Source: Lama guanicoe
Taxonomy: Eukaryota
Assembly (NCBI GenBank): GCA_013239625.1
Contig: MU053216.1
Span: 2,074,943-2,134,942, forward strand
Direction: 5' to 3'
Length of the DNA: 60,000 nucleotides
In this document: positions 5,420 through 58,263 of the stretch, piece by piece
Layout: each line of letters opens with the position of its first letter
How positions within the stretch are numbered: position 1 is the first letter of the stretch
Position numbers and translations under genes: made by a program
Notes under the pieces: generated by a model
Databases searched by the model: none
Seen by the model: the letters and a program-made list of their open reading frames with translations, nothing else
Told to the model about the DNA's origin: nothing

Positions 5420-5502
5420 TTTTTTAATGGAGGTACTTGGGATTGAAGCCAAGACCTCATGCATGCTAAGCACGTGCTCTACCGCTGAGCTCTACCCCTC
5501 CC
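5420..5502 (-). mobile_element. tRNA-derived SINE (camelid Vic-1-like)
   Basis: Reverse complement reads GGGAGGGGTAGAGCTCAGCGGTAGAGCACGTGCTTAGCATGCATGAGGTCTTGGCTTCAATCCC: Pol III A and B boxes with a tRNA-Ala-like body. Confidence 0.9.
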
Positions 5503-9541: not shown

Positions 9542-9634
9542 NNNNNNNNNNNNNNNNNNNNNNNNNNNNNNNNNNNNNNNNNNNNNNNNNNNNNNNNNNN
9601 NNNNNNNNNNNNNNNNNNNNNNNNNNNNNNNNNN
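9542..9634. other. Assembly gap (run of N) at an L1 poly(A) end
   Basis: Run of N characters in the sequence. Confidence 1.
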
Positions 9635-11088
9635 CAGTGTACAGTTTTTCAGTTATACATGAACATGTATATATTCATTGTCACATATTTTTCTCTGTGA
9701 GCTACCATAAGATCTTGTATATATTTCCCTGTGCTATACAGTATAATCTTATCTATTCTACAATTTTGAAATCCCGTCTATCCCTTCCCACCCCCCAACC
9801 CCTTGGCAACCATAGATTTGTATTCTATGTCTATGAGTCTGTTTCTGTTTTGTATTTGTGCTTTGTTTTTTTTGTTGTTGTTGTTGTTTTTTTAGATTCC
9901 ACATATGAGCGATCTCATATGGTATTTTTCTTTCTCTTTCTGGCTTACTTCACTTAGAATGACACTTAGAAGGAGCATCCATGTTGCTGCAAATGGCATT
10001 ATGTTGTCGGTTTTTATGGCTGAATAGTATTCCATTGCATAAATATACCACAGCTTCTTTATCCAGTCATCTGTTGATGGACATTTAGGCTGACTCCATG
10101 TCTTGGCTATTGTAAATAGTGCTGCTATGAACATTGGGGTGCAGGTGTCATCCTGAAGTAGGGTTCCTTCTGGATACATGCCCAGGAGCAGGATTCCTGG
10201 GTCATATGGTAAGTCTATTCCTAGTCTTTTGAGGAATCTCCATAGTATTTTCCACAGTGGCTGCACCAAACTGCATTCCCACCAGCAGTGTAGGAGGGTT
10301 CCCCTTTCTCCACAGCCTCTCCAGCATTTGTCATTTGTGGATTTTTGAATGATGGCCATTCTGACTGGTGTGAGGTGATACCTCATTGTAGTTTTGATTT
10401 GCATTTCTCTGATAATTAGTGATATTGAACATTTTTTCATGTGCTTTTTGATCATTTGTATTTCTTCCTTGGAGAATTGCTTGTTTCAGTCTTTTGCCCA
10501 TTTTTGGATTGGGTTGTTTGGTTGTTTCTTACTAAGTCATATGAGCTGCTTATATATTCTGGAGATCAAGCCTTTGTCAGTTTCATTTGCAAAAATTTTC
10601 TCCCATTCCGTAGGTTGTCTTTTTGTCTTACTTATAGTTTCCTTTGCTGTGCAGAAGCTTGTAAGTTTCATTAGGTCCCATTTGTTTATTCTTGCTTTTA
10701 TTTCTATTGCTTGAGTAGACTGTTCTAGGAGAACATTTTTGAGATGTTTGTCAGATAATGTTTTGTCTATATTTTCTTCTAGGAGGTTTATTGTTTCTTG
10801 TCTTATGTTTAAGTCTTTGATCCATTTATAGTTAATTTTTGTGTATGGTGTAAGGGAGTGTTCTAGCTTCATTGCTTTACATGCTGCTGTCCAGTTTTCC
10901 CAACACCATTTGCTGAAGAGACTGTCTTTATTCCATTGTATATTCTTGCCTCCTTTGTTGAAGATTAGTTGACCAAAAGTTTGTGGGTTCATTTCTGGGC
11001 TCTCTGTTCTGTTCCATTGGTCTATATGTCTGTTTTTGTACCAATACCATGCTGTCTTGATGACTGTAGCTCTATAGTATTGTCTGAA
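9635..11088 (-). mobile_element. Young 5'-truncated LINE-1, ~1.45 kb of ORF2 3' part and 3' UTR
   Basis: ORFs 10537-10992 ([27 protein letters not shown]) and 9892-10455 ([21 protein letters not shown]...[18 protein letters not shown], the Cys-rich domain) are L1 ORF2p split by a frame break. Same subfamily as 498-1206 and 39533-40199 (shared LLQDDTCTP). Confidence 0.97.
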
Positions 11089-11170
11089 TTTTAATGGCAG
11101 TAGCGGGCACTGAACCCAGGATCTCGTGCATGCTAAGCACCCGCTCTACCACTGAGCTATAGCCTCCCCC
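11089..11170 (-). mobile_element. tRNA-derived SINE head; probable tail remnant at 9518-9541
   Basis: CTGAACCCAGGATCTCGTGCATGCTAAGCACCCGCTCTACCACTGAGCTATAGCCTCCCC; direct repeat AAATGTTAAAA at 9505-9515 and 11173-11183. Confidence 0.88.
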
Positions 11171-12369: not shown

Positions 12370-12751
12370 TTTTTTTGTTGGTGTTTGTTTTGGAGGGAGG
12401 GTAATTAGGTTTACTCATTTACTTATTTATTTTAATTTTTAAGTGTATTTTTATTGAAGCATAGTTGATTTCCAACGCTGTGTTAACTTCAGGTGCGCAG
12501 CACAGTGATTCAGCCTTGCGGCATCATGATTTCCTACTCTTTTTCATTATAGGTTATTGCAAGGAATTGAGTACAGTTCCCTGTGTGCCACAGTAGGACC
12601 TTGCTGCTTATCTATTTCATATGCAGTGGTTTGTATCTGTAAATCCTGAACTCCCGATTTATCCCTCCACCATCCTCCCCTTTCCCTGGGGATTGAACTC
12701 AGGACCCAGTGCACGCTAAGCATGCACTCTACCACCGAGCTATACCCTCCC
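12370..12751 (-). mobile_element. tRNA-derived SINE interrupted by a ~240 bp L1 3' end (L1 ~12448-12685)
   Basis: SINE tail GGAGGGAGGGTAATTAGGTTT at ~12392, then L1 terminus TTTTATTGAAGCATAGTTG...CCTCCCCTTTCC, then SINE head CTGGGGATTGAACTCAGG...GAGCTATACCCTCCC. Confidence 0.88.
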
Positions 12752-15359: not shown

Positions 15360-15450
15360 ATTATTATTTTTTAATGAAGGGACTGGGGATTGAACCCATG
15401 ACGTCATGCTTGCTAAGCATGTGCTCTACCACTGAGCTATTTCCCTCCCC
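15360..15450 (-). mobile_element. tRNA-derived SINE with 17 bp target-site duplication
   Basis: GGGGATTGAACCCATGACG...CTACCACTGAGCTATTTCCCTCCCC; TSD CTGGAATTTATTTTATT at 15343-15359 and 15451-15467. Confidence 0.93.
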
Positions 15451-16035: not shown

Positions 16036-16899
16036 TGTTTTTATTTATAAATTTAGAACTTGAAAGAATTGCTTATTTTTTGCAGAAGTGGACACTCCAG
16101 TCACGTGGGGGTGGTCATACACAAACGTCTTATCTTTTCAGTTGATGCTCAGGGTAGAAGAACACGTATATATTATATTATGTCTGAATAAATGGGTCAG
16201 CAGACACTGGAGGCTTGGTTCTGTTCAGGGGACTGACAATGTGTCACCTGACTGTGACGCTGTAGTGTCTGTGTGGGGACAGGGCCAGAACTCACCGGGA
16301 CAAAATGAAGTCTTCAGGTACCAGGCTTTCAACTCGTATTATATACAATGAGAAAGCCTTTCTGTCACATTAGCACCTACAATGTTGTTTTTTTTTTAAA
16401 TTTAATACAAATCCATTTCCTTCTTTCGGTTTTTAAAACATATGAGTGAGAGCGAGCACTCTAATCGCTCCTCATAGCGCCCTGCACTGTGGAGACTGCC
16501 TGTAACGTCCACAGGCGCCCTCGGACGAGAATGAATCTGTCTGAATAAAACCGGTAATCTGAGGCAATTAAAGTAGTTTTGTGAGGGGCGATAAGCAGCC
16601 GCTGTTGGGTCTACGGAGCGATCGTTGGTGCTATTGTGCAGAAGATGTCTTTTTAGGCCGTGAGCTGTTTTGAAAAATTTCAGAGACCTCAAGTCTGAAA
16701 AACACAAGGACAAGATACAGGCTGGAGACACAATTAATTCTGGAGCCTCCGCCTGGTACAGACCGTTCCAACCGGCAAAGCAAAAGCTGCACAGAGGTTA
16801 CAGGAGAAGTTAATGCGCAGTCTTCAAAACAACAGAAAAAGCTGGAAGACTAGCTAAGAAATTAGTATAGAATGAGACAGTGCATTTATTTTAATGTGT

Positions 16900-17070
16900 A
16901 TGTATTTATTGAAGTAGAGTCAGTTTACTAGGCTGTCAGTTTCTGGTGTACAGCACGGTGCTTCAGTCATACAGGAACACACATATATTCCTTTTCATGT
17001 TCTTTTTCACCGTAAGTTACTACAAGATATTGAATATAGTTCCCTGTGCTCTGCAGTATGAACTTCTTGT
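16900..17070 (-). mobile_element. Short LINE-1 3' terminus
   Basis: TTTATTGAAGTAGAGTCAGTTTAC...TACAAGATATTGAATATAGTTCCCTGTGCT. Confidence 0.85.
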
Positions 17071-17599
17071 TTCAGTGTGTTTTAAAGAAAGGGGAAAGGA
17101 AGTTAAAATGTTTGTAGAAAATACAAAATAAAATTCATGTTGATGTGTATGGGGAGACAAGACTGCACTTAGGGAAACACTTTTATTTCTTGAGGCAAGA
17201 TTTCAAAAGCCCGGGAGACATGTCACACACTCTGGACAGAAAATTCTCACCCACCACGTACAGGGGAGAGGAGCCTGGAGAACCTCTGATGATGGTCAGC
17301 TTCTATCTGCAAGCAACTTCTATGTTACTGTCAACGCTTTGCAAACTTCTTTCACGAGGACCTACATTTATGAGAATAAACAAGAATAAATGAGACACTT
17401 CTGGGTCTGCCTCCTACGATAGAGGCCTCTGAATTCCATACCTGATTTTGGAAATTCAGTTTCAACTTTTAAATATGAAGACCTCGCTAAAAAAAAATAC
17501 TTCAATGAAAAAACAAAAATAATACTGCAGTTAAACAACAAAAATAAAAATCATACTTCAATTTAAATTTTTTTCAATTAAAAATAAATATGAAACAGC

Positions 17600-18620
17600 T
17601 AGCTTCCCCACTGCGGCCGAGCGCTCAGGCAGGGAGATTTCCGCTGTCTCTGCCTCCTGCCCCTTCCCCACGAAACAGATTCCGTCAGCATTTTAGAAAA
17701 AGCTCATTTTTCATCCGTGACCATTTCACGTGGGGTTTTAACCCAGGACAGCGGAGCTGTGGGCCGGCCCGTGACCTGGTGCCGGTTCCGGGCGGCGCTG
17801 GAGCCCCGCGCGCAACCTCTCCGAGCCGCGGGGCCCGGAGAGGGGCGGGCGCCTGCGCGCGGAGACCGCAGCCCGCGTCCAAGCTGCGCGGCAGGCGCGC
17901 TGGCTCCAGGCAAGCGCTGCCCCTCTTCCCGCCGGCTGTGCCCCGACTTCCAGCCGTGGGGACACCTGCAGGGAGTCCCACCTCCGGGCACATCCCTTCC
18001 GGCCGCTGCAGAGGCACGTGGTGCCCCCGCTGCTCCTCCGCCGGGCGCAGGGAGGCCCCCGGTGCCTCCAGGACAACCGGGGTGCCTCGTGGGAACCACC
18101 CGAGGCTGGAAACACCATCTGCACACGTAATAATCACATTTTTCAAAATGGGTCTCCGGCTCCTCAGTCAAAAGACGTTTTTCATCAGAGCGCTGGTGAT
18201 TCTGGGCCAAAGCTCTGATGTTCGCATCCGCTCATAAGAGGTTGCCGGACGTGGCAGAAGACAAACCACAACAACGGAACAGGATGCCCAGCTAAACCTG
18301 AACACCAGGTAGAGCCTGACTGCCTTGTTTTAAGTGTATGTACCATGTACTAGTAGGGACATAATTATACTAAAATATTCACTGTTTATGGAAAACCCAA
18401 ATTTAGTCAAGCACCCGTACTCCACCTGGGAGCCGCATCTTGGAACCAGGACGGGTAACGGTGAGGGAAGGCGGTCCCTCTCCCACGCGGAAGACGCGGA
18501 GGCCCGGACGGCGTAGGAGTCCGGTGAGTTGGGTGCTCGGGTTTCGCAGTGACGGCACCTTTCAGGAACAGCTGGGAGGCGCTCTGATCCGCCTTGACTT
18601 TTCCGCTCTCGGTCTGCCGT
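17600..18620. promoter_or_regulatory. CpG island / candidate promoter
   Basis: Dense CpG. E-boxes CACGTG at 17727-17732 and 18015-18020, GC box GGGGCGGG at 17842-17849, and a + strand donor CCG|GTGAGT (GT at 18524). Preceded by an A-rich block at ~17490-17590. Confidence 0.65.
18320..18430. mobile_element. MER53-like hAT MITE fragment
   Basis: GGGACATAATTATACTAAAATATTCACTGTTTATGGAAAACCCAAATTTAG resembles the MER53 arm as recalled. Confidence 0.6.
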
Positions 18621-19234: not shown

Positions 19235-19790
19235 TTATTTACGACTTTTAGGTTCAAATTGTGTATGGTGAAGTGCACAGCTCATAAATGTACCATTTGG
19301 CACATTTTGACAAATACATACACCTGTGTCACCCAGAGGTGACACAGATGATACTGGTGTGAGATACAGAGCATTACCATCACTTTAGAATGTCTCCTCG
19401 TGGCCCTTTCCAGAGGAGGCAGCTATTGTTCTGATTTTCTTGGTCACATAGGTTAATTAGGTTAAAATAGGTCAAAAGTCGTATGCTTTTGGACAAGGCT
19501 TCCTTCACGCAGCATCACGGTTTTCAATTTGTCCCTGCTGTTGGGTGTATCGGCAGATGGTTCCTTTTTATTGCTGATAGCATTTCGTGCCATGAAGAGA
19601 CCACAGAAGGGTGAGCCGTTCTGCTCTTGGGGAGCACGTGGGATGTCTCCAGGTCCCCACTCTTGTAAATAAGGTTGCCGTAAACGTTCTAGTACACGTC
19701 TTATCGTGGACATAGCTTCTGGCCCTCCCCACCCTCTGCCCATCCCCCATCTCTGGAGTCAACACCCAGGAGTGGAAGCGACCAGGTTTG
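19235..19790 (-). mobile_element. Ancient L1M (L1MC/MD/ME-type) 3' end
   Basis: AAGTGCACAG...TTTTGACAAATACATACACCTGTGTCACC...ATACAGAGCATTACCATCAC...GGCTTCCTTCACGCAGCAT...TTCCTTTTTATTGCTGA. Confidence 0.75.
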
Positions 19791-22041: not shown

Positions 22042-22187
22042 AAGGATCAGCCTCGTCTACCTCCATCAGTGCATCTTCACCCGGGAGCTAGAAGGACCAG
22101 CCTCGTCCCCTTCCATCAGTGCATCTTCACCCGGGAGCTAGAAGGACCAGTTTCATTCACCCTCATCAGTGCATCTTCACCTGGAAG
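22042..22187. repeat. Tandem repeat, 50 bp unit, ~3 copies
   Basis: AAGGA(T/C)CAGCCTCGTC..C.TCCATCAGTGCATCTTCACCCGGGAGCTAG starts at 22042, 22092 and 22142. Confidence 0.95.
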
Positions 22188-24136: not shown

Positions 24137-24269
24137 TTTGCTTTTTTGTTTGTTTTATGAGGAGGAAGCAGTTAGGTTTATTTTTTATATTTGGAGGAGG
24201 TGCTGGGGATTGAACCCAGGACCTCGTGCATGCTAAGCACCCGCTCTACCACTTGAGCTATACCCTCCC
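24137..24269 (-). mobile_element. tRNA-derived SINE (Vic-1-like)
   Basis: GGAGGTGCTGGGGATTGAACCCAGGACCTCGTGCATGCTAAGCACCCGCTCTACCACTTGAGCTATACCCTCCC with a T-rich tail. Confidence 0.93.
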
Positions 24270-26755: not shown

Positions 26756-27939
26756 AATTACTGATACTTGAGGTTGCGCTGCCTGCTTTATATGTAGCAG
26801 GGACCGGAAAGGGGCGGGATCACAGAGGCGGCCGGGGGGAAACGGAGAAAGTTTAGCGTGGCGCTGGGAGGAGGGACTGGCAGCCAGGAGACCTCGTGGT
26901 CAGAACGCGAAGGCTGAGTTCGGTGGCCGAACAGCACTGCACTAAATGCCAAGAATAGCTGTAGTTTATAGAATAAGATCATTAATTTTTTTCAGGTTGT
27001 TTTTCTAGAGGTAAGAAATTATTATTTATATATATTTTTTAAATCAAAGAAGACATCTAGAAACAAATGGGAGAACCTATGGCTGAAAAAACCACCCCAT
27101 GCAAGGAAAAATATGTAAGGTGTGAATTAGGTATCCTAAAACAATGACACTCATTGACTGTGTTCACACTTTGGGGACGTATTAACGGGAACTGGATTTA
27201 TTATTTAAGCATTTAAAAAGTATCTTTCTCGGCCAGGGTTATAATCATCTTAAAAGCAAATACGCACAGAATTCATTCGGAATAATCTGATCTTTGAAAG
27301 TCATGACTAAGCTACCCCTTGGGGTTGCCAGTCCCATTTCTACTGCTTACTGGGCGCGACTTCGGACAGTGCAACTTCCTCAGGACTGGACTGACCGCGC
27401 TCTGAGGGGCGTGCTGACCTCAGGCCGTGAGTGGTCGAGGGTCAGGTTGCAGGCTTAGCACAGAGTCTATACCTGTTAGTGGTGTTATTGCCAGAGCTTG
27501 GTGACAACATGCAGCGTAAGGAATATGCTTTCACACACGTGTTCGGCTTCGCCCGCACCGTCGGTTTTCCTCTGAAGAACGTCCTCTTCCGGCCTCGCCC
27601 GCAGGCTTCCGCGGGCGCCGCACCCGAGCCGGCGGCGGCGGTGGTGCCCGTGCAGGACGCGTCCCCTTCTGCGGGGGCCGCGGCCTGGAGCGGCCCGTGG
27701 CCACTGTCTGACTTCACATGGAGAAACTGAGGAGTTTGCGGCAGAACCAAGTGTTTGCAGAAGGAGAACTATTTTTCTGTGCCATGCCTATTCTCCCGGC
27801 TCGGAACCTTTTCTTTTTTGATTGAAGTGTGGTCAGTTACGTGGCCCCAGGCCCCAGGCCTCAGCTGCTGGTGCTTCCCATCAGAAGGCCGGCAGGGGCG
27901 CACCCCTCCGCTGGTTTCCCCGGTGACCGCGGGCGCACC

Positions 27940-27954
27940 TGACGTCACTTCCGC
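27940..27954 (-). promoter_or_regulatory. Overlapping ETS-CRE motif GCGGAAGTGACGTCA (GABP/ETS + CREB/ATF)
   Basis: Plus strand TGACGTCACTTCCGC: a full palindromic CRE overlapping an ETS core, followed by GGCCCCGCCCC. Confidence 0.85.
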
Positions 27955-27984
27955 TGGCGCTGCCCGGCCCCGCCCCCCACACTG

Positions 27985-28039
27985 AACCGCCGGCGTCTCT
28001 GTCGCCGACTCCCGGTTCTCTCTTGGGTCTGGAAGCTGG
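27985..28039 (+). other. Candidate non-coding first exon
   Basis: Lies just downstream of the ETS-CRE and GC box and ends at donor TGG|GTGAGT. No ATG; start position is a guess. Confidence 0.5.
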
Positions 28040-28249
28040 GTGAGTACAGGCCGCGCAGGTCTGGGGGCGCAGCCCGACGATAACGCGCTGGCAATTAGGG
28101 GAATTTTTGAAAACTGTTTTAAAAACATACGTGCTTACCAGGCTTCTCCAGGGAAGCCTCTCCAGGGGACAGACTGTATCTGACTGACTTGGGTACATCC
28201 GGCCCCAGCGCAGTGCCTGCCACATCCCAGGTGCTAACCGAACAATTGT

Positions 28250-29164: not shown

Positions 29165-29295
29165 ACTTTTTTTTAACTTTATTTTAGCGGGAGGTAATTA
29201 AGTATTTATTTATTGTAATGGAGGTACAGGGGATTGAACCCAGGACGTTGTGCGTGCTAGGCACACACTCTACCACTGAGTGACATGCTCCCCCC
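29165..29295 (-). mobile_element. tRNA-derived SINE (Vic-1-like)
   Basis: GGGAGGTAATTAAGTATTTATTT...GGAGGTACAGGGGATTGAACCCAGGAC...CTCTACCACTGAG. Confidence 0.9.
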
Positions 29296-36064: not shown

Positions 36065-36281
36065 GCATTCCAGAGTCACCTAGACCAAATCTGGTCCTCC
36101 ACCTGCCTGTTTTTGTAAATAAAGTTTTATTGACATTGTCGCCCTGTTTGTTACCGTGGCATCTGTGGCTGCTTTCCCACTGCCGGGGAAGATCTGAAGC
36201 GTTGCGAGGGAGGCTGTGTGTCCCGCGGTGCTGGAAATACTTACTGTGGAGCCCTTTATGGGAAGAATTTGCCAGCCTCTG
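36065..36281. mobile_element. MER58A-like hAT-Charlie MITE
   Basis: CCAAATCTGGTCC...CCTGTTTTTGTAAATAAAGTTTTATTG...TGGCTGCTTT...AAATACTTACT...GCCCTTTATGGGAAGAATTTGCCAGCCTCTG. Confidence 0.82.
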
Positions 36282-37269
36282 CTTAAGAGCCCCCCGTCTG
36301 GATCTGAATTCTGCCTTCAGCATTCACTGGCTGCGCTGCCTGGAACAGGTGTGCTTCACGCTTCAGATCCCGAATCTGAACAACGGCTGCACCTGCAGCG
36401 GTTGCCCGGGCCGCTGTGGCGACCGCCCGAGATGGTGGGTGCCAGCTCCCCCGCCTGCCTGGCCGGGGGAGTCAGTCCTGTTCTATGGCTCCCTGTTCTT
36501 AGGCCTCCGAGAAAGGTTCCTGATCGCTGCTAAAATCATCTTGCACTGTACCCTGCAGAGGACAGCTTACTTTTTCTGAGAACAGTAAGTTTCTAGGCAT
36601 TGCGACACTCATTTCTTAAAAATGTTCTCATAAGCAGCTTTCTCTTATTAAACGTAAGAGGTTACGGGAACCTCAGTCACCTGTGGGATTTCCGTGCGTC
36701 GTTGGCAGCGTCTAGCATTGTGCTGGTTCCGGTCACAGATCTGGCTCACAAGGAAATTGCATCATTTGTTCTCAAAATGCCCCAGTCTGAGTGAGGCAGG
36801 CACGTCCGAATCGCGCCCCCTGGCAGAGGCGTAGGGTGAGGCAGACGGAAGAAAGGTGGCGGCTCCTTCTTGAGTCCAGCCTCCTCTCTGGGCTCTTCGC
36901 CCACGCCCTTTCAGAGAGCCCAGGAGGCAGCCTCCTCCCGCACTGCAGACCAGAAAATCACAGGGACCGGCTCTGGGCTCCCGGGCTCCCGGCCGGTCGC
37001 ACTGGAAAATACTGCCGGGTTGGTAAGGTGCGTCTCCTGTGGCCGGACACCCCCTTCTGCTGCCTGGTGCCCCCTCTGCACGCAGTCCTGGGCTGCTCAC
37101 AGCCCCGTGCCTTACAGCCCTCAGGGCTCACTGCCTCCCACATGCCTCACCTTCCAAATGTCTTTCTCTCCCCACCTCACCTGTCCTTGAGCCAAACTCC
37201 TCTCAGTCTGAGATCCATCCGTCTAAGCAGAAATCGAGCTGATCAAAGGAACTTCTTCTCAAGGAATAC

Positions 37270-39532: not shown

Positions 39533-40199
39533 ATTTTATTTATTTTATTTTTTAACATTTTTTATTGATTTATAATCATTTTACAATGTTGTGTCAAATT
39601 CCAGTGTAGAGCACAATTTTTCAGTTATACATGAACATGTATATATTCATTGTCACATTTTTTCTTTTCTTTTCCACTGGGACAGAAACATTTTCTAAGC
39701 TTTTACAAGCCATCTTCTGTTCTCATTGGAAATGAAAATATATTATGCGCTGAGAAAATCCCAGTCTGTCCCTTCCCACCCCTGCCCCCTTGGCAACCAC
39801 AAGTTTGTATTCTATGTCTGTGAGTCTGTTTCTGTTTTGTATTTATGCTTTGTTTTGTTTTGTTTTTTTTTAATATTCCACATATGAGTGATCTTGCATG
39901 GTATTTTTCTTTCTCTTTCTGGCTTACTTCACTTAGAATGACATTCTCCAGGAGCATCCATGTTGCTGCAAATGGCATTATGTTGTCAGTTTTTATGGCT
40001 GAGTAGTATTCCATTGTATAAATATACCACATCTTCTTTATCCAGTCATCCATTGATGGACACTTAGGCTGTCTCCGTGTCTTGGCTGTTGTAAATAGTG
40101 CTGCTGTGAACACTGGGGTGCAGGTGTCATCCTGAAGCAGGGCTCCTTCTGGGTACACGCCCAGAAGCGGGGTTCCTGGGTCACACGGTGAGTCTGTTC
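39533..40199 (-). mobile_element. Young 5'-truncated LINE-1 with TSD and an internal foreign segment
   Basis: ORF 39703-40158 contains the ORF2p C-terminus. Near-duplicate flanks AGGAGAAAACTAATTTTA (39521) and AGGAGAAACTAGTTTTA (40200). Confidence 0.95.
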
Positions 40200-43557: not shown

Positions 43558-43866
43558 TTTTTTTTTGTTGTTGTTGTTAAACTGAAGTAGAGTTGATTTA
43601 CGTTTTGCTAGTTTCTGGGGTACAGTATTTTGATTGTTACACATACGTATTTTTTTCGTATTCTTTACTAAGTGAAGTAAGTCAGACAGAGACAAATACC
43701 GTATGATATCATTTATACGTGGAATCTAAAAAAATGGCACAATGAACTTAACAAAGCAGAAACAGACTCTCGGACGTAGAGAACAAACCGACGGCCACCA
43801 AAGGGGAAAGGGTTGTGGGAGGGTAAAGTAGGGGCCCGGGGTCAGCGGTGCCCGCACCTGCTATCT
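43558..43866 (-). mobile_element. LINE-1 insertion with 5' inversion
   Basis: 43558-43666 is the minus-strand L1 terminus. 43667-43866 is further-upstream L1 sequence in + orientation (ACTAAGTGAAGTAAGTCAGACAGAG...). Confidence 0.85.
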
Positions 43867-46821: not shown

Positions 46822-46960
46822 ATTTTTATTTTTTTGTTTGGGGAGGTGTCCTTATTTTATTATTATTACTATTTTTAATTTTTAATGGAGGAGCTGGGGA
46901 TTGAACCCAGGACCTTGTGCACGCTGAGCACGCGCTCTCCCTCTGAGCTCTGCCCTCCCC
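46822..46960 (-). mobile_element. tRNA-derived SINE (Vic-1-like)
   Basis: TAATGGAGGAGCTGGGGATTGAACCCAGGACCTTGTGCACGCTGAGCACGCGCTCTCCCTCTGAGCTCTGCCCTCCCC. Confidence 0.92.
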
Positions 46961-52900: not shown

Positions 52901-55039
52901 GTCATGTTGTGCGTGTGGAAAGGGACGGGTGCCCTTCCCGCCATCTCACAGAGAGCGGACACGTGGCCAGCCTCGATCCGCTGAGTCAGGATGGCCCCGT
53001 CCCGAGCACACGCCCAGCTCCCCGCACGGAGTGGTCCCTGAGTGTTCAGTGGATGCTTGTTAACAAAGGGAACTTGCCTGATTGATGCGTCTTAGGAGTT
53101 AGCAGGTGGAAGGAAGTGGAATCATTTTAACGATACTGTACGTCAACTTATTTTAAATACCATGTAACTTTTCTTTTTCTGCAAGTACATCAACACCTGC
53201 TGCAATAAAGACTCTTACTCTTGGTCTCAGCAAAAAAAAGAACACAGAATGAGTGCCCGGTGATCATGAAGAACTGCAGCTTCCTGAGAACCGGGTGTGC
53301 AGGTGGTTTTTATTTTCTTCTCACTTCCGTGCGGCTCTGAGAGTTGGCATTAGGACTCTCGTTTTTCTCACTGGAGGACGGAACCACGCAGCCCCGAGCG
53401 CTCTGGTGGCCAATGGTGGCGTGGGGACTTGAGGCAGATTTGTTTGATCCAAAGGAAACCATCTTCCCACTGTGCCACTCGGGCTATTTCCACAGACCAC
53501 AGGCTTAAAAGGTTCCTCTCAGCCCAGGAAGTCACTGCTCTGAGGCTCCTTACCAAGAACGCATTCTTCTCCATTCCCCAAAGCTGAACAGGGGAGACCA
53601 GCGTGTCAGTCGTGACGAAGGCGAGAGGGGGACAGAAGATCTCCTGCGTAACCTGAGCCCCTTCCTTCTCCATCTTCATGGATTCAGATTCAGGAATGAG
53701 AATAACATTCCTGATCTCTTATGCTATTTTCTGATTCTTGTGGGAAGAGGGAGTATCACAAAAATGCGCTCAGAATTGGGTGACACACGGATGGACTCAT
53801 GGACAGACCGGGTGCCCGTCTCACTTTCACTGTCTACGCAAGGAATAGCACTTCAGCAACTACGAAGCCCAAACCGTGGCAGAGCATGGAAGAGCCTGGA
53901 GGCCACACAGTCCGTCGGAGGTTCTGTTACGCTAACTGGCTGAAGAGCTTGTCAGTGTCTCCTGGGTACGAACGCCTCCTCTGTGATCACCCGAAAAGGT
54001 TTCCAGCACTGTAGCTGGTCCTAATTCACGAAGAACGGTGATCTCCTTTCTCCACTGGGTTTCACACGTCAGGCAATAAGCCACACTTAAGGCGTACTAA
54101 TGCTGTCCTGTTCGAGTCCCAGTGTCTCCCCGCATACACGACCGATGATGACCGGATGTCCTGTTTCAATGGTGTCTTTCAAGAGAAAGTTTGACACTCC
54201 TTGTCTCAGTGTCCGCAGGGTTCCTGTGGTCACTGTATTTCCTCACCGTGGATTAGGGACGCCCCGTGTTCAGGATAAACTCTGTCTCTGAATAATCCAC
54301 GTATAAACTGATTCAATGGACGTGGTTTTCCTGGGGCAGGAGGAGGAGGGGTGAGGATGGGTGTGTGTGCGCGCGCGCAGGGGGTTGGTGGAACTGGTTT
54401 CATCTGCATTAAATCCTTCTATTTTAATGGACACAGGGGAGGATGCTGGTGGCGCTAAATACGTCGACCTCTTTCCATAGTCAAGCCAGCTCCACGAGAT
54501 GCTTATTCTGATGTTTGTTTTAGAGATTAAGAAACCAAAACACCTTTTGTGGAAAGGTGGCAGATTGTATAGATGCATCTGACTTTATTTCTTCTGAAAC
54601 CTCAGTGAAAATACAGCAAAGAGATTTTTATAAATTAAAACCAGTGGGATGGAGAAAATGGGAGAAGGCAGCACGTAAGAAAGCTGGAAAGCAGACAGGG
54701 GAGAGAGAGTGGACTTGGCAGGCCCCAGAAGAGCCAAATCCCGCTCGAAACACGGAAAGCTGGGTCCAGTCGGGTGTGGAATCCTCAAAAGGCCCAGAAA
54801 CGCCCGGCACCAGGTACTTCGGAGGTGGGAGCAGCGGGCGTAGGGAGCCAAGAAAGAAAAAGTTCTGGAAACTGTCGGGTCCTCAGGTACCCTCTCCCGC
54901 TCTCTGCTGCTGGCGGGCTGTTCATTCCAACCTGCCGGAGTGCTTCAAGGCTCGGCCCCTGGAGAGGGCGGAGCCAGGCCTGACACGGGGAGGCCTGACA
55001 CCGTCCCGGGGACCCCAGGAATCTCTGTGTTTGAAACTG

Positions 55040-56550
55040 GCTGAAACTGACATCCCTCGGCCCTCCTTGGGCTGCTCCGCACCCGCAGACCTTGTCCTGC
55101 AGGCGGGAGATCGGGGGGCCTAGTCTGGGGAGGCAGAGCAGAAGCCCGAGAGGGAAGAGCTGGGGATTCCGCGTCACAGGGCGCCCCCCGCGTGGGCCCG
55201 ACAGTCACCCCGCGTGCCGCTGCGTGCGAGGTGGCGCCCACTGCACAGGGCTTACCAGTCCTCCCAACTCTGTTTTAAGCCTTACTCCACTCTGAAAATG
55301 GACACAAGTATGGTAGGGTAATACAGTGTATGCACAGCCGAAGTGATTGTTATACCCCCCCCCCCCGACTCTGCTCGCATCGCGTCCGGGCCCCCGCGGC
55401 TCCTCCGCAGCCCCGGGACGGCCCCGCCCTGCCCGCCCGGCGCGCGCCTGCTCGCTCTCCTGCTTCGGCAGCTGCGTGCGGCTCCTTGGCCGCTGCCTGC
55501 TTGGACCTTCACGTGAAAGGAACACGAGGAGTGCGCGTTGCTGCGTGGCTTTAGCGGTGAGGCCGAAGTGTGTCCCTTGTTGCCACTGGTGTCCGCGCAC
55601 ACCCCGCTCATCTCACCGACGCCGGGGCCGCCTCTCGTTCGGGCCCGCTGGGGACGACGTCGCCGCGGTGCGGGGGTGCCGTCCTCGGCTCCTTCAGGGC
55701 GGGGGCTGCTGGGTGTCTCCGGTAAAGGGCCAGCCAGCGACCGCTGTGGGTCCCCCGGGCCGTGCAGCCTCTCAAGTCCGTGCGAAGGCGCCCCGGGCGC
55801 CGCGGGCGGCACAGCAGCGCGCGCTCTCAGCCGCGGGCGGCAGCTGGGTTTGACCTGGGGCTTCGCGGGCTGGCCCTCCGTCTAGGGCGCGTACCGGGGG
55901 TGAACCGCTGGCTGTGAGGTAAGCCTGTCTCTCGCGTAAATAACGTCAAAGTGGTTTTCAAAGTAGCTGCGCCCGTTTATAGTCCCCCGTCGTCCCCCAG
56001 GCCAAGTATGAGGGCGAGCATCTCCCAGTGCCTTCCACACCAGCTGCTGGTGCCGCCAGACGCGTCGTCTTAGCCGCTCCGGTGACGCGGGCTGGTGCCT
56101 CCTGTGGCCGTCGGTCTCAAGTCCCTGACGCGTTATAAACATTCCCTGCCAATTAGATGGTTGAGTTTTTCTTTTTCTTTTTTTCTTTTGAGAAGTGCCC
56201 GACAGGTTACTGTGCTTGGAATGTTTGTGTCCCCCTAAAATTCATGTTGACCCCCAAAGGTGATAGCATTCGGAGGAGTGGTCTCTGGACAGCGATGAGG
56301 TGGTGAGGGTGGAGCCCTCTGAGGGGATTAGAGTTCTGAGAAAAGACGCCCCGCACCCGGCGAGGAGGTGCCAGCCCTGAGCGAGGGGCCCGGCTCTCCC
56401 CAGAGCGGCCCCTCCCTGGCGCCTTGAGCTTGGACCGTCGCATCCAGCGCCGGGAGCAGTGCATGTGTGTTCTCTGTAAGCGGCGCAGCCTCTGGTGTTT
56501 GCTGTAGCGTCCCAAACGGACGGAGACACCAGGGACCCGCCCGTCTCCCG
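55040..56550. promoter_or_regulatory. CpG island, largely overlapping transposon fossils
   Basis: Very high GC and CpG density; donor-like GAG|GTAAGC at 55919. Regulatory function is not shown. Confidence 0.6.
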
Positions 56551-56760
56551 CCCCGACTTTTCTGTTAGGTTTTCTGTTATTTTCTTACTGATTTGTAAAA
56601 TGTGCTTAAATATATTGGATGTGAGACTTTTTAAAGTTGTTTGGGTATAAATACTTTCTCCAGTTTCATGGTGTGTTTTTAATACTCTATTAATAGAACT
56701 TTTAAATGAACATATATTCTTTGTTTAATTGGTGTCATAATTCAAATTCCCTTTAACACT
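55370..56760 (-). mobile_element. Ancient L1M 3' end, strongly GC-shifted, interrupted by MLT1A
   Basis: Colinear L1M-like landmarks: TGCCTGCTTGGACCTTCACGTGAAAGGAA, GCTGCTGGGTGTCTCCGGTAA, GTGGTTTTCAAAGTAGCTGCGCCCGTTTA, CTTAGCCGCTCCGGTG, CTTTTGAGAAGTGCC, then CTTACTGATTTGTAAAATGTGCTTAAATATATT. Confidence 0.65.
56207..56528 (+). mobile_element. MLT1A-like MaLR solo LTR
   Basis: GAATGTTTGTGTCCCCCTAAAATTCATGTTG...GAGGGTGGAGCCCTC...GGCGCCTTGAGCTTGGAC...AACGGACGGAGACA; 5 bp TSD ACAGG / CCAGG. Confidence 0.85.
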
Positions 56761-56781
56761 GTATTTTTGATATACAGGCTT

Positions 56782-57468
56782 TTAAAAATATTGAAGTAGA
56801 GTTGATTTAAAGTAGTGTGTTAGTTTCAGGTACACAGCAGAGCGGTTCAGTTATATACGTATAATTTTTTTAGGTCATTTTCCGTAACAGGTTGTTACAA
56901 GATGTTGATTGTAGTTCCTTGTATTATGCAGTAAATCCTTTTTACTTACCTATTTTATACATAGTAATTATGTTAATCCCAAACTCCTAATTTATCCCTC
57001 CTCCGCCCATTTCCCCTTTGATAACCATGTCTGTTTTATATGTCTGTGAAGTCTGTTTCTGTTTTGTATATAGATTCATTTGCATTATTTTTTAGATTCC
57101 ACATATAAGTGACATTATATGATATTTGTCTCTCTCTGTCTGACTTACTTCACTTAGTATGATCATCTCTGGGTCCATTCATGTTGCTGCAAATGACATT
57201 ATTTCATTCTTTTTTATGGCTGAGTAGTATTCCATTGCATAAATATACCACATCTTTTTTATCCAGTTGCTTCCATGTCTTGGCTACTGTAAATAGTGCT
57301 GCTGTGAACATTGGGGTGCATGTGTCTTTTTGAATTAGGGTTTTTGTCTTTTGTGGATACACGCCTGGGAGCAGGGTTGCTGGGTGGTATGCTCTTATTT
57401 TGAGTTTTTTGAGGAACCTCCATACTGTTTTCTATAGTGGCTGCACCAATTTACATTCCAACTGACAG
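56782..57468 (-). mobile_element. LINE-1 3' end
   Basis: TTGAAGTAGAGTTGATTT...AGATTCCACATATAAGTG...GAGGAACCTCCATACTGTTTTCTATAGTGGCTGCACC. Confidence 0.92.
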
Positions 57469-58263
57469 TAGCACTGGTGTTTTTGTGTTCTATTTAAAAA
57501 CAACTTTTCCTACCCTGAACGCTTGAAAATATTCTACACTTTGTTTTGATCACTTGTTTTGCCCTAGATGTTTATGTCTACCATCCATTTGAAATTTCAT
57601 TTAAAAAATATATTCTTAGCTCTTAAGTTAGCCATCAAGTTTTAATTGTTTTCTGTGTGGATAGCTGGCTGGCCCAGCACTGCTGGCTGAAGACACCGCT
57701 GTCCTCTGCAGTGCTGTGTTTGTGACACATCAGTGCTCCATCTGGCTCCTCCTGGCTGCTCCTCTGGCCTTTTTGATGCTTCTTGCCCCAGTGCACGCTG
57801 CCTTTCATGCTACTGCTTTGCAAGTCTTGGTATCGGGTGGGACAGGCTATCTTCACTTGTGTTTCATTCCTGCAACCCGTATAAACCAAGGGTATGCATT
57901 TCACTGCCGGTCACGTTAGGATCTGCCCTGCTGAGAACCAAAGGCTGGCCACAGACAGCATCTGTCTCCATCTCCCATCCATATTCTTGCTGGATGTCCC
58001 ACGCCAGGACCACACCTCATCCTTGCTGGATCCCCTGGTTGTGATGAGTCCTTTTCTCCAGGACTTACTCACAGCCTTGCCCACAGATCTTCCCAGGAAG
58101 GTTCTGGGAAACTCTCAGAGGAAATAAAGACAGGCCAAGACCTAGAGCTTCCTTGCTTTTCCTCTTTGGGGAACCTTTAGTCACTAGTTTCCTGTCCTGG
58201 GGTATCCAGGCTTATGCTTGCTACTCTATTTGTATATTTGTTACCTTTCACTTAATTTTCTAG

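Follow-up and report, generated by a model that had tools for sequence, protein, structure and literature searches.

A CpG island apparently built from an AT-rich LINE-1 fossil and its nested inserts, with GC-biased gene conversion as the best-fitting cause

Comparison with paralogous repeats in a 60,000-nucleotide stretch of Lama guanicoe DNA (the window, that is, the whole stretch analysed) showed that sites once A/T have become G/C over about 1.2 kb of a repeat nest, with few G/C sites lost. The DNA concerned is a CpG island at 55300-56560, and the alignments support its construction from an old L1 fossil together with inserts that this fossil received. GC-biased gene conversion (gBGC) best fits the shift from A/T to G/C, and we infer it as the cause with a probability of about 0.8. 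CpG islands made by gBGC are already published, and the locus is one well-documented example.

The island spans 1261 bp with GC 0.65, 118 CpG and a CpG o/e of 0.88, and passes the CpG-island thresholds for length (at least 200 bp), GC (at least 50%) and CpG o/e (at least 0.6) used in the accessible text of PMC4121359. Its core, 55370-56120, had GC 0.70 and o/e 0.97; the o/e of the whole window was 0.51. The sequence-only reading had placed the island among the most CpG-dense stretches of the window, and counts in 500-bp bins bore this out, bin 55501-56000 being the first of 120 with 59 CpG, followed by 27501-28000 with 47 and 55001-55500 with 42. Seventeen patches with GC of at least 0.6 and o/e of at least 0.65 were found in the window, the longest at 55021-56170, and no gene was seen. 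The right edge of the island, near 56560, was sharp, and the passage into AT-rich L1 described for this point was found again: 56561-56790 had GC 0.25 and no CpG, and the L1 homology goes on. AT-rich stretches also remain within the converted island, near 55920-55985 and 56130-56200.

The L1 copy at 9636-11090 of the window served as the reference for the old L1, and each piece was searched freely against the whole copy. This reference is a young L1 whose ORF2 C-terminal frame is nearly open (2 stops in 331 codons) and which adjoins a 93-base assembly gap at 9542-9634; its minus-strand frame 10093-10485 matched residues 1077-1209 of human LINE-1 ORF2p (E=1.6e-62). The alignments reported here were scored symmetrically (match 5, transition -1, transversion -5); a matrix favouring A/T to G/C changes (W>S) was used for leads only. 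In one setting whole-sequence dinucleotide shuffles were too lax, an unrelated CpG patch scoring z 5-7 under them, and the controls were therefore extended by decoys and by shuffles of 30-nt blocks. The features of the region are the following.

54570-55300, no strand assigned: GC-rich left flank; GC 0.59, 37 CpG, o/e 0.58.
55306-55355, minus strand: perhaps the 3' end of the old L1; weakly similar to the beginning of the majority reference made from the in-window L1 copies.
55370-55699, minus strand: piece A, apparently GC-converted L1 3' region; GC 0.73, 45 CpG, o/e 1.03; maps to 9936-10173.
55509-55516, no strand assigned: palindromic E-box TCACGTGA; a single site, equalled by 2 of 500 shuffles.
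55700-55880, no strand assigned: piece B, DNA-transposon-like insert, apparently GC-converted; GC 0.77 against 0.52 in its other copy.
55877-56201, minus strand: piece C, probable L1 ORF2 C-terminal coding fossil; maps to 10165-10483, within the stretch matching ORF2p (residues 1077-1209).
55916-55924, plus strand: donor-like GAG/GTAAGC; L1 copies have this motif at the aligned place, on the L1 antisense strand.
56208-56528, no strand assigned: LTR-like insert of about 325 bp; it separates old-L1 homology ending at 56201 (reference 10483) from that starting again at 56543 (reference 10489).
56543-56750, minus strand: piece E, probably the same old L1, unconverted beyond about 56560; 56543-56738 maps to 10489-10681.
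56790-57469, minus strand: 3' end of a younger L1 inserted in the old L1; roughly 70% identical to many L1 copies of the window, 5 CpG.
57474-57829, minus strand: piece F, probable continuation of the old L1 ORF2, moderately GC-rich and CpG-poor; maps to 10704-11082, score 313 against 162±21.

Pieces A, C, E and F map to the reference in order and their joints nearly abut, which argues for one old L1 split by three inserts; this L1 may belong to the L1M group (MB/MC/MD). An exon or a retrocopy had been considered as the origin of the island and was ruled out by the collinear repeat map. The case for L1 homology, as judged from the alignments, is strong for pieces C, E and F. Piece C scored 227 against 107±18 in the 30-nt block shuffles, none of 200 reaching its score, and at most 2 of 200 reached it for five of the six L1 copies tried; for piece E none of 200 did so against either of two copies. 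Two strings had been quoted by the sequence-only reading as L1 3'-end landmarks, and both are present. The second, at 55951, lies inside the alignment of piece C; the first is at 55494, in a stretch where the in-window copies align in another register, and its comparison with an old L1-like copy, 19330-19730, was not significant (33/200 shuffles).

For piece A, whose aligned part is 55482-55698, the case for L1 homology is moderate. Its score was reached by at most 1 of 200 block shuffles against three of eight copies only, and these three are close kin, 82-89% alike. The core of the piece, 55595-55699, fell at the same L1 position with z of at least 2.2 in six of nine copies, and gave 41/300 with the majority reference. 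Model-based alignment to the majority reference gave 60/300 for piece A, which is non-significant, and 4/300 for piece C. No homology was found for 55370-55480. The weak match at 55306-55355 was reached by 1 of 300 shuffles with one matrix and by 60 of 300 with another.

This left end bears on a further explanation, which we regard as unlikely though the most probable of the alternatives to the main reading: 55370-55600 would be an older GC-rich element or an ancestral island, L1 would lie on the right only, and conversion would have spread from that seed. The segment without homology, the failure of piece A against five of eight copies and the adjoining GC-rich flank, which may be retrotransposon-5'-like, would all suit such a seed. 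The core of piece A nevertheless falls at one and the same L1 position in six of nine copies, with piece C adjoining it on the other side of the duplication that flanks piece B, and the CpG peak lies within L1 and transposon DNA and not in the flank. The left flank itself, presumably resembling the 5' region of a HAL1/L1-type element, is a possible seed of the island; it had no in-window match above control, and three of its ORFs gave no Pfam match. An older seed alters the trigger and leaves the gBGC mechanism as it is.

Other searches of the island were negative. Plain blastn gave no match of the island elsewhere within the window, an nhmmer profile of 12 in-window L1 copies gave no hit in 55300-56205 and likewise none in 200 shuffles, tblastn revealed no remaining similarity of the island to ORF2 protein (its best E, 0.037, fell on a lysine-rich stretch), and one 108-aa island frame had no PDB hit at E of 10 or less. 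None of the eight ORFs run against Pfam, out of 14 listed for the island and its flanks, gave a match; this is weak evidence because true ORF2 pieces also give no Pfam match.

A chance resemblance or an assembly artefact could in principle produce such a map, GC-rich queries being able to inflate scores, but we hold this to be extremely improbable. Block shuffles and reversed and complemented controls were low, and the 4 of 284 decoys that outscored piece C all overlap another L1 copy, 40001-40199. Among the 24 sequencing runs listed for 53500-56560, 18 DNA runs (8 studies, 4 organism labels) contained 0.82-0.94 of the sampled words, which makes an assembly artefact unlikely; these 18 all represent very close relatives, and one may be the source of the DNA. 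Four of the listed runs contained 0.00 of the words, and two RNA runs reached a share of 0.07, none being higher, which speaks neither for nor against transcription.

Two of the three inserts, piece B and the younger L1, were absent from the earlier reading. Piece B is dispersed, with one other copy within the window at 36065-36295, to which it aligned in one orientation only (134 against 76±13, 0/200 shuffles, 0/9 decoys). It is flanked by an imperfect 8-bp duplication, 55693-55700 and 55881-55888 (6 of 8 identical), and at this point the L1 intervals of pieces A and C share 9 nt. These features fit a hAT-type transposon with an 8-bp duplication, presumably MER58-like, whose ends showed only partial complementarity as terminal inverted repeats. 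The LTR-like insert may be an MLT1A (MaLR). Insertions of MaLR LTRs of this kind are about 330-370 bp long with a 5-bp duplication; here the flanking 5-mers matched at 4 of 5 positions by eye, and no second copy was found within the window. The contrast noticed between its two sides is real, the left being CpG-poor (56201-56300, GC 0.50, 2 CpG) and the right CpG-rich (56300-56560, GC 0.67, 21 CpG). The younger L1 is a separate element, for which no convincing target-site duplication was found.

Base changes were polarised by paralogues, with one in-window L1 reference that belongs to another subfamily than the old L1; pieces A and C were counted as inside the island and pieces E and F as outside, against the same reference. 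W>S changes were found at 131 of 289 sites inside versus 84 of 338 outside (0.45 versus 0.25, P=9e-8, sites treated as independent), the reverse S>W changes at 38 of 215 versus 74 of 194 (P=4.5e-6, on the same treatment of sites), and GC-neutral changes did not differ (38/504 versus 55/532, P=0.13). By piece, the W>S and S>W counts were 60/115 and 9/87 in A, 71/174 and 29/128 in C, 20/121 and 35/70 in E, and 64/217 and 39/124 in F. Over 55881-56205, nearly the span of piece C, 25 CpG were counted against none in the 319 bp of the reference paralogue. The majority of the 12 aligned in-window L1 copies is AT-rich (GC 0.36), and therefore it is the island that changed and not the family. Piece B, which is unrelated to L1, showed the same skew against its other copy (36 S/W against 8 W/S), which ties the force to the place and not to a repeat family. 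The younger L1, which sits 230 bp from the right edge of the island, had not drifted towards GC, with W>S at 33/359 and S>W at 38/212.

The signature of a gBGC tract, with W>S in excess, S>W in deficit and GC-neutral changes unaffected, is thus present as polarised by paralogues. According to the accessible text of PMC11161765, W>S goes up and S>W goes down under gBGC, and substitution-based estimates are ill-suited to a single locus. Of the proposal that a CpG island arose here de novo by long-lived gBGC, the repeat origin and the W>S shift relative to paralogues, with GC-neutral changes unaffected, stood up to the analysis, and gBGC is retained as the best-fitting cause.

A toy simulation was run with assumed mutation rates and 12 replicates per cell, starting from an in-window L1 (GC 0.41). 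To attain GC 0.72-0.76 it took 0.15 neutral substitutions per site at B=8 or 0.3 at B=5, and at B=20 it passed this range between 0.05 and 0.1 substitutions per site. With B=1 and no CpG decay, GC was only 0.50 after 0.4 substitutions per site. This bears on germline hypomethylation alone, by which CpG decay would have halted and GC would have risen in the absence of any conversion bias. The low S>W proportion inside the island and an o/e near 1 would be expected from it, but W>S was also raised and not just S>W lowered, and the simulated GC of 0.50 falls short of the 0.73 of piece A, B=0 being expected to give less still; we judge this explanation highly improbable. At B of at least 5 the simulated o/e was nearly equal with and without methylation, and therefore sequence cannot tell a methylated from an unmethylated island; CpG o/e, considered as a sign of hypomethylation, was ruled out on this ground.

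The mammalian rate is about 2 per 1000 million years, at which the required substitutions per site correspond to tens of millions of years. Human hotspots, as described in the accessible text of PMC4510005, have B above 10 and ages under 0.7-1.3 million years. The time needed greatly exceeds these ages, which suggests a bias that persisted for long or came back repeatedly; with a larger ancestral population less time would be required. By the collinear mapping, an old L1 3' part landed on the minus strand, and a DNA transposon, an LTR and a younger L1, family names aside, entered it later. Under gBGC, a recombination hotspot, strong and long-lasting or recurrent, would then have driven biased conversion over about 1.2 kb for a duration far beyond that of one PRDM9 allele, the CpGs arising as a by-product. 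The AT-rich patches left inside the island indicate that conversion was patchy, which one smooth hotspot does not predict.

No regulatory function is required to explain the island. The sequence-only reading had suggested that it may act as a promoter with a first exon, based on the donor-like site, whose GT is present at 55919 as described. At the equivalent position three of the 12 aligned in-window L1 copies carry GTAAG and one carries GTGAG, and the site is therefore inherited from L1; with no gene found nearby, the promoter idea was not upheld. In a scan of nine motifs only the E-box palindrome exceeded the shuffles, and its evidence is weak because it was one of nine and was noticed before the test; five GC-boxes were found against 2.4 expected (P=0.09). 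Rfam over 1-56200 gave five tRNA-like matches only, all heads of one SINE family (5428-5499, 15377-15446, 24195-24267, 29219-29290 and 46886-46956). Selection on a repeat nest co-opted as a promoter or enhancer, with G/C and CpG gains favoured, would draw on the o/e near 1 of the core, on the E-box with the GC-boxes, on AT-rich patches that could be constrained where they resisted conversion, and on the association of species-specific orphan islands with enhancer marks reported in the accessible text of PMC11170920. The roughly 130 W>S changes are, however, scattered across unrelated repeats, and the single enriched motif, the inherited donor, the absence of Pfam matches and the restriction of Rfam matches to tRNA-derived SINE heads speak against it. 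We consider selection improbable, and gBGC is preferred.

Several other patches of the window were recorded. A younger L1 piece at 43666-43859 had W>S 23/105 against S>W 3/57 and 9 CpG relative to the in-window majority, and appears as a second, more recent patch of GC drift. Nine extra L1 copies were scored; GC* exceeded 0.7 in three that were long enough and was 0.42 or less in five; this mixture points to a bias that is local and recurrent in the region. The L1 3' fragments 12448-12686 (25/122 versus 5/60) and 16890-17072 (14/111 versus 1/40) showed a mild W>S excess. Two gene-free CpG-rich patches, 17601-18210 and 27441-28160, had core o/e of 0.81 and 0.90 and no repeat origin was shown for them; the latter contains the 3' terminus of an L1 as a short stretch, 27810-27838. 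In the old L1, 57640-57860 had GC 0.53 and 3 CpG and is possibly an extinct conversion patch with decayed CpGs. A 50-bp tandem repeat (2.8 copies, 87% matches) is found at 22042-22181.

Among known systems, the island resembles the BGC class of CpG islands in the classification of Cohen et al., as described in the accessible text of PMC4121359 and PMC4417305, in being kept or made by a W>S fixation bias and not by selection. As given there, that class was defined from primate substitution rates and is constitutively methylated; the UCSC islands of PMC4121359 exclude repetitive sequence, whereas nearly all of the present island derives from repeats. The accessible text of PMC11170920 describes orphan CpG islands that overlap phastBias gBGC tracts, and proposes that CpG-rich DNA arrives with a transposon insertion; here, in contrast, the source L1 is almost CpG-free (0 in 319 bp). 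The collinear DNA homology to an in-window copy matching ORF2p residues 1077-1209 likens the fossil to the LINE-1 ORF2 3' region, from which it differs in being dead, interrupted three times and of GC 0.56-0.73 versus about 0.41, with no protein-level match. Stable PRDM9-independent hotspots across placentals are reported in the accessible text of PMC11161765, and such hotspots at hypomethylated sites (PMC11161765 and, in its accessible part, PMC13186367) likewise combine a narrow, long-lasting W>S excess with a CpG-rich site. The same part of PMC13186367 reports, for mice, a depletion of repeat families at PRDM9-independent hotspots and, for every PRDM9 allele tested, a depletion near L1, which makes the island somewhat unexpected as a PRDM9-independent hotspot. 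Camelid names are absent from the main text and four supplementary files of PMC11161765, and the literature search returned no paper on camelid PRDM9. No island built from an L1 3' fossil is described in the titles and abstract beginnings searched, subscription journals and bioRxiv supplements lying outside the search.

Two states of the island appear nearly equally probable, germline-unmethylated and now attracting recombination to itself, or methylated and lying in a region of high recombination, the methylated state being slightly favoured. In its fullest form the unmethylated state would be an unseeded hotspot that began in CpG-free L1 DNA, germline-unmethylated, PRDM9-independent and self-sustaining for tens of millions of years; conversion would make CpGs and a factor-binding site, these would protect from methylation, and protection would bring more recombination. 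We regard this combination as speculative and rather doubtful.

The locus indicates that AT-rich, CpG-free L1 DNA can turn into a textbook CpG island. Since repeats carry their own ancestral state through their paralogues, no outgroup is needed for a repeat nest to reveal a fixation bias that acts locally. Converted fossils can escape a profile made from AT-rich copies, and so converted repeats may be found among the CpG islands regarded as non-repetitive. Should the island be unmethylated and recombining at present, it would bear on the origin of PRDM9-independent hotspots; and if the self-sustaining form were true, the island and the smaller patches of the window would be dated snapshots of the birth of default hotspots and of CpG islands.
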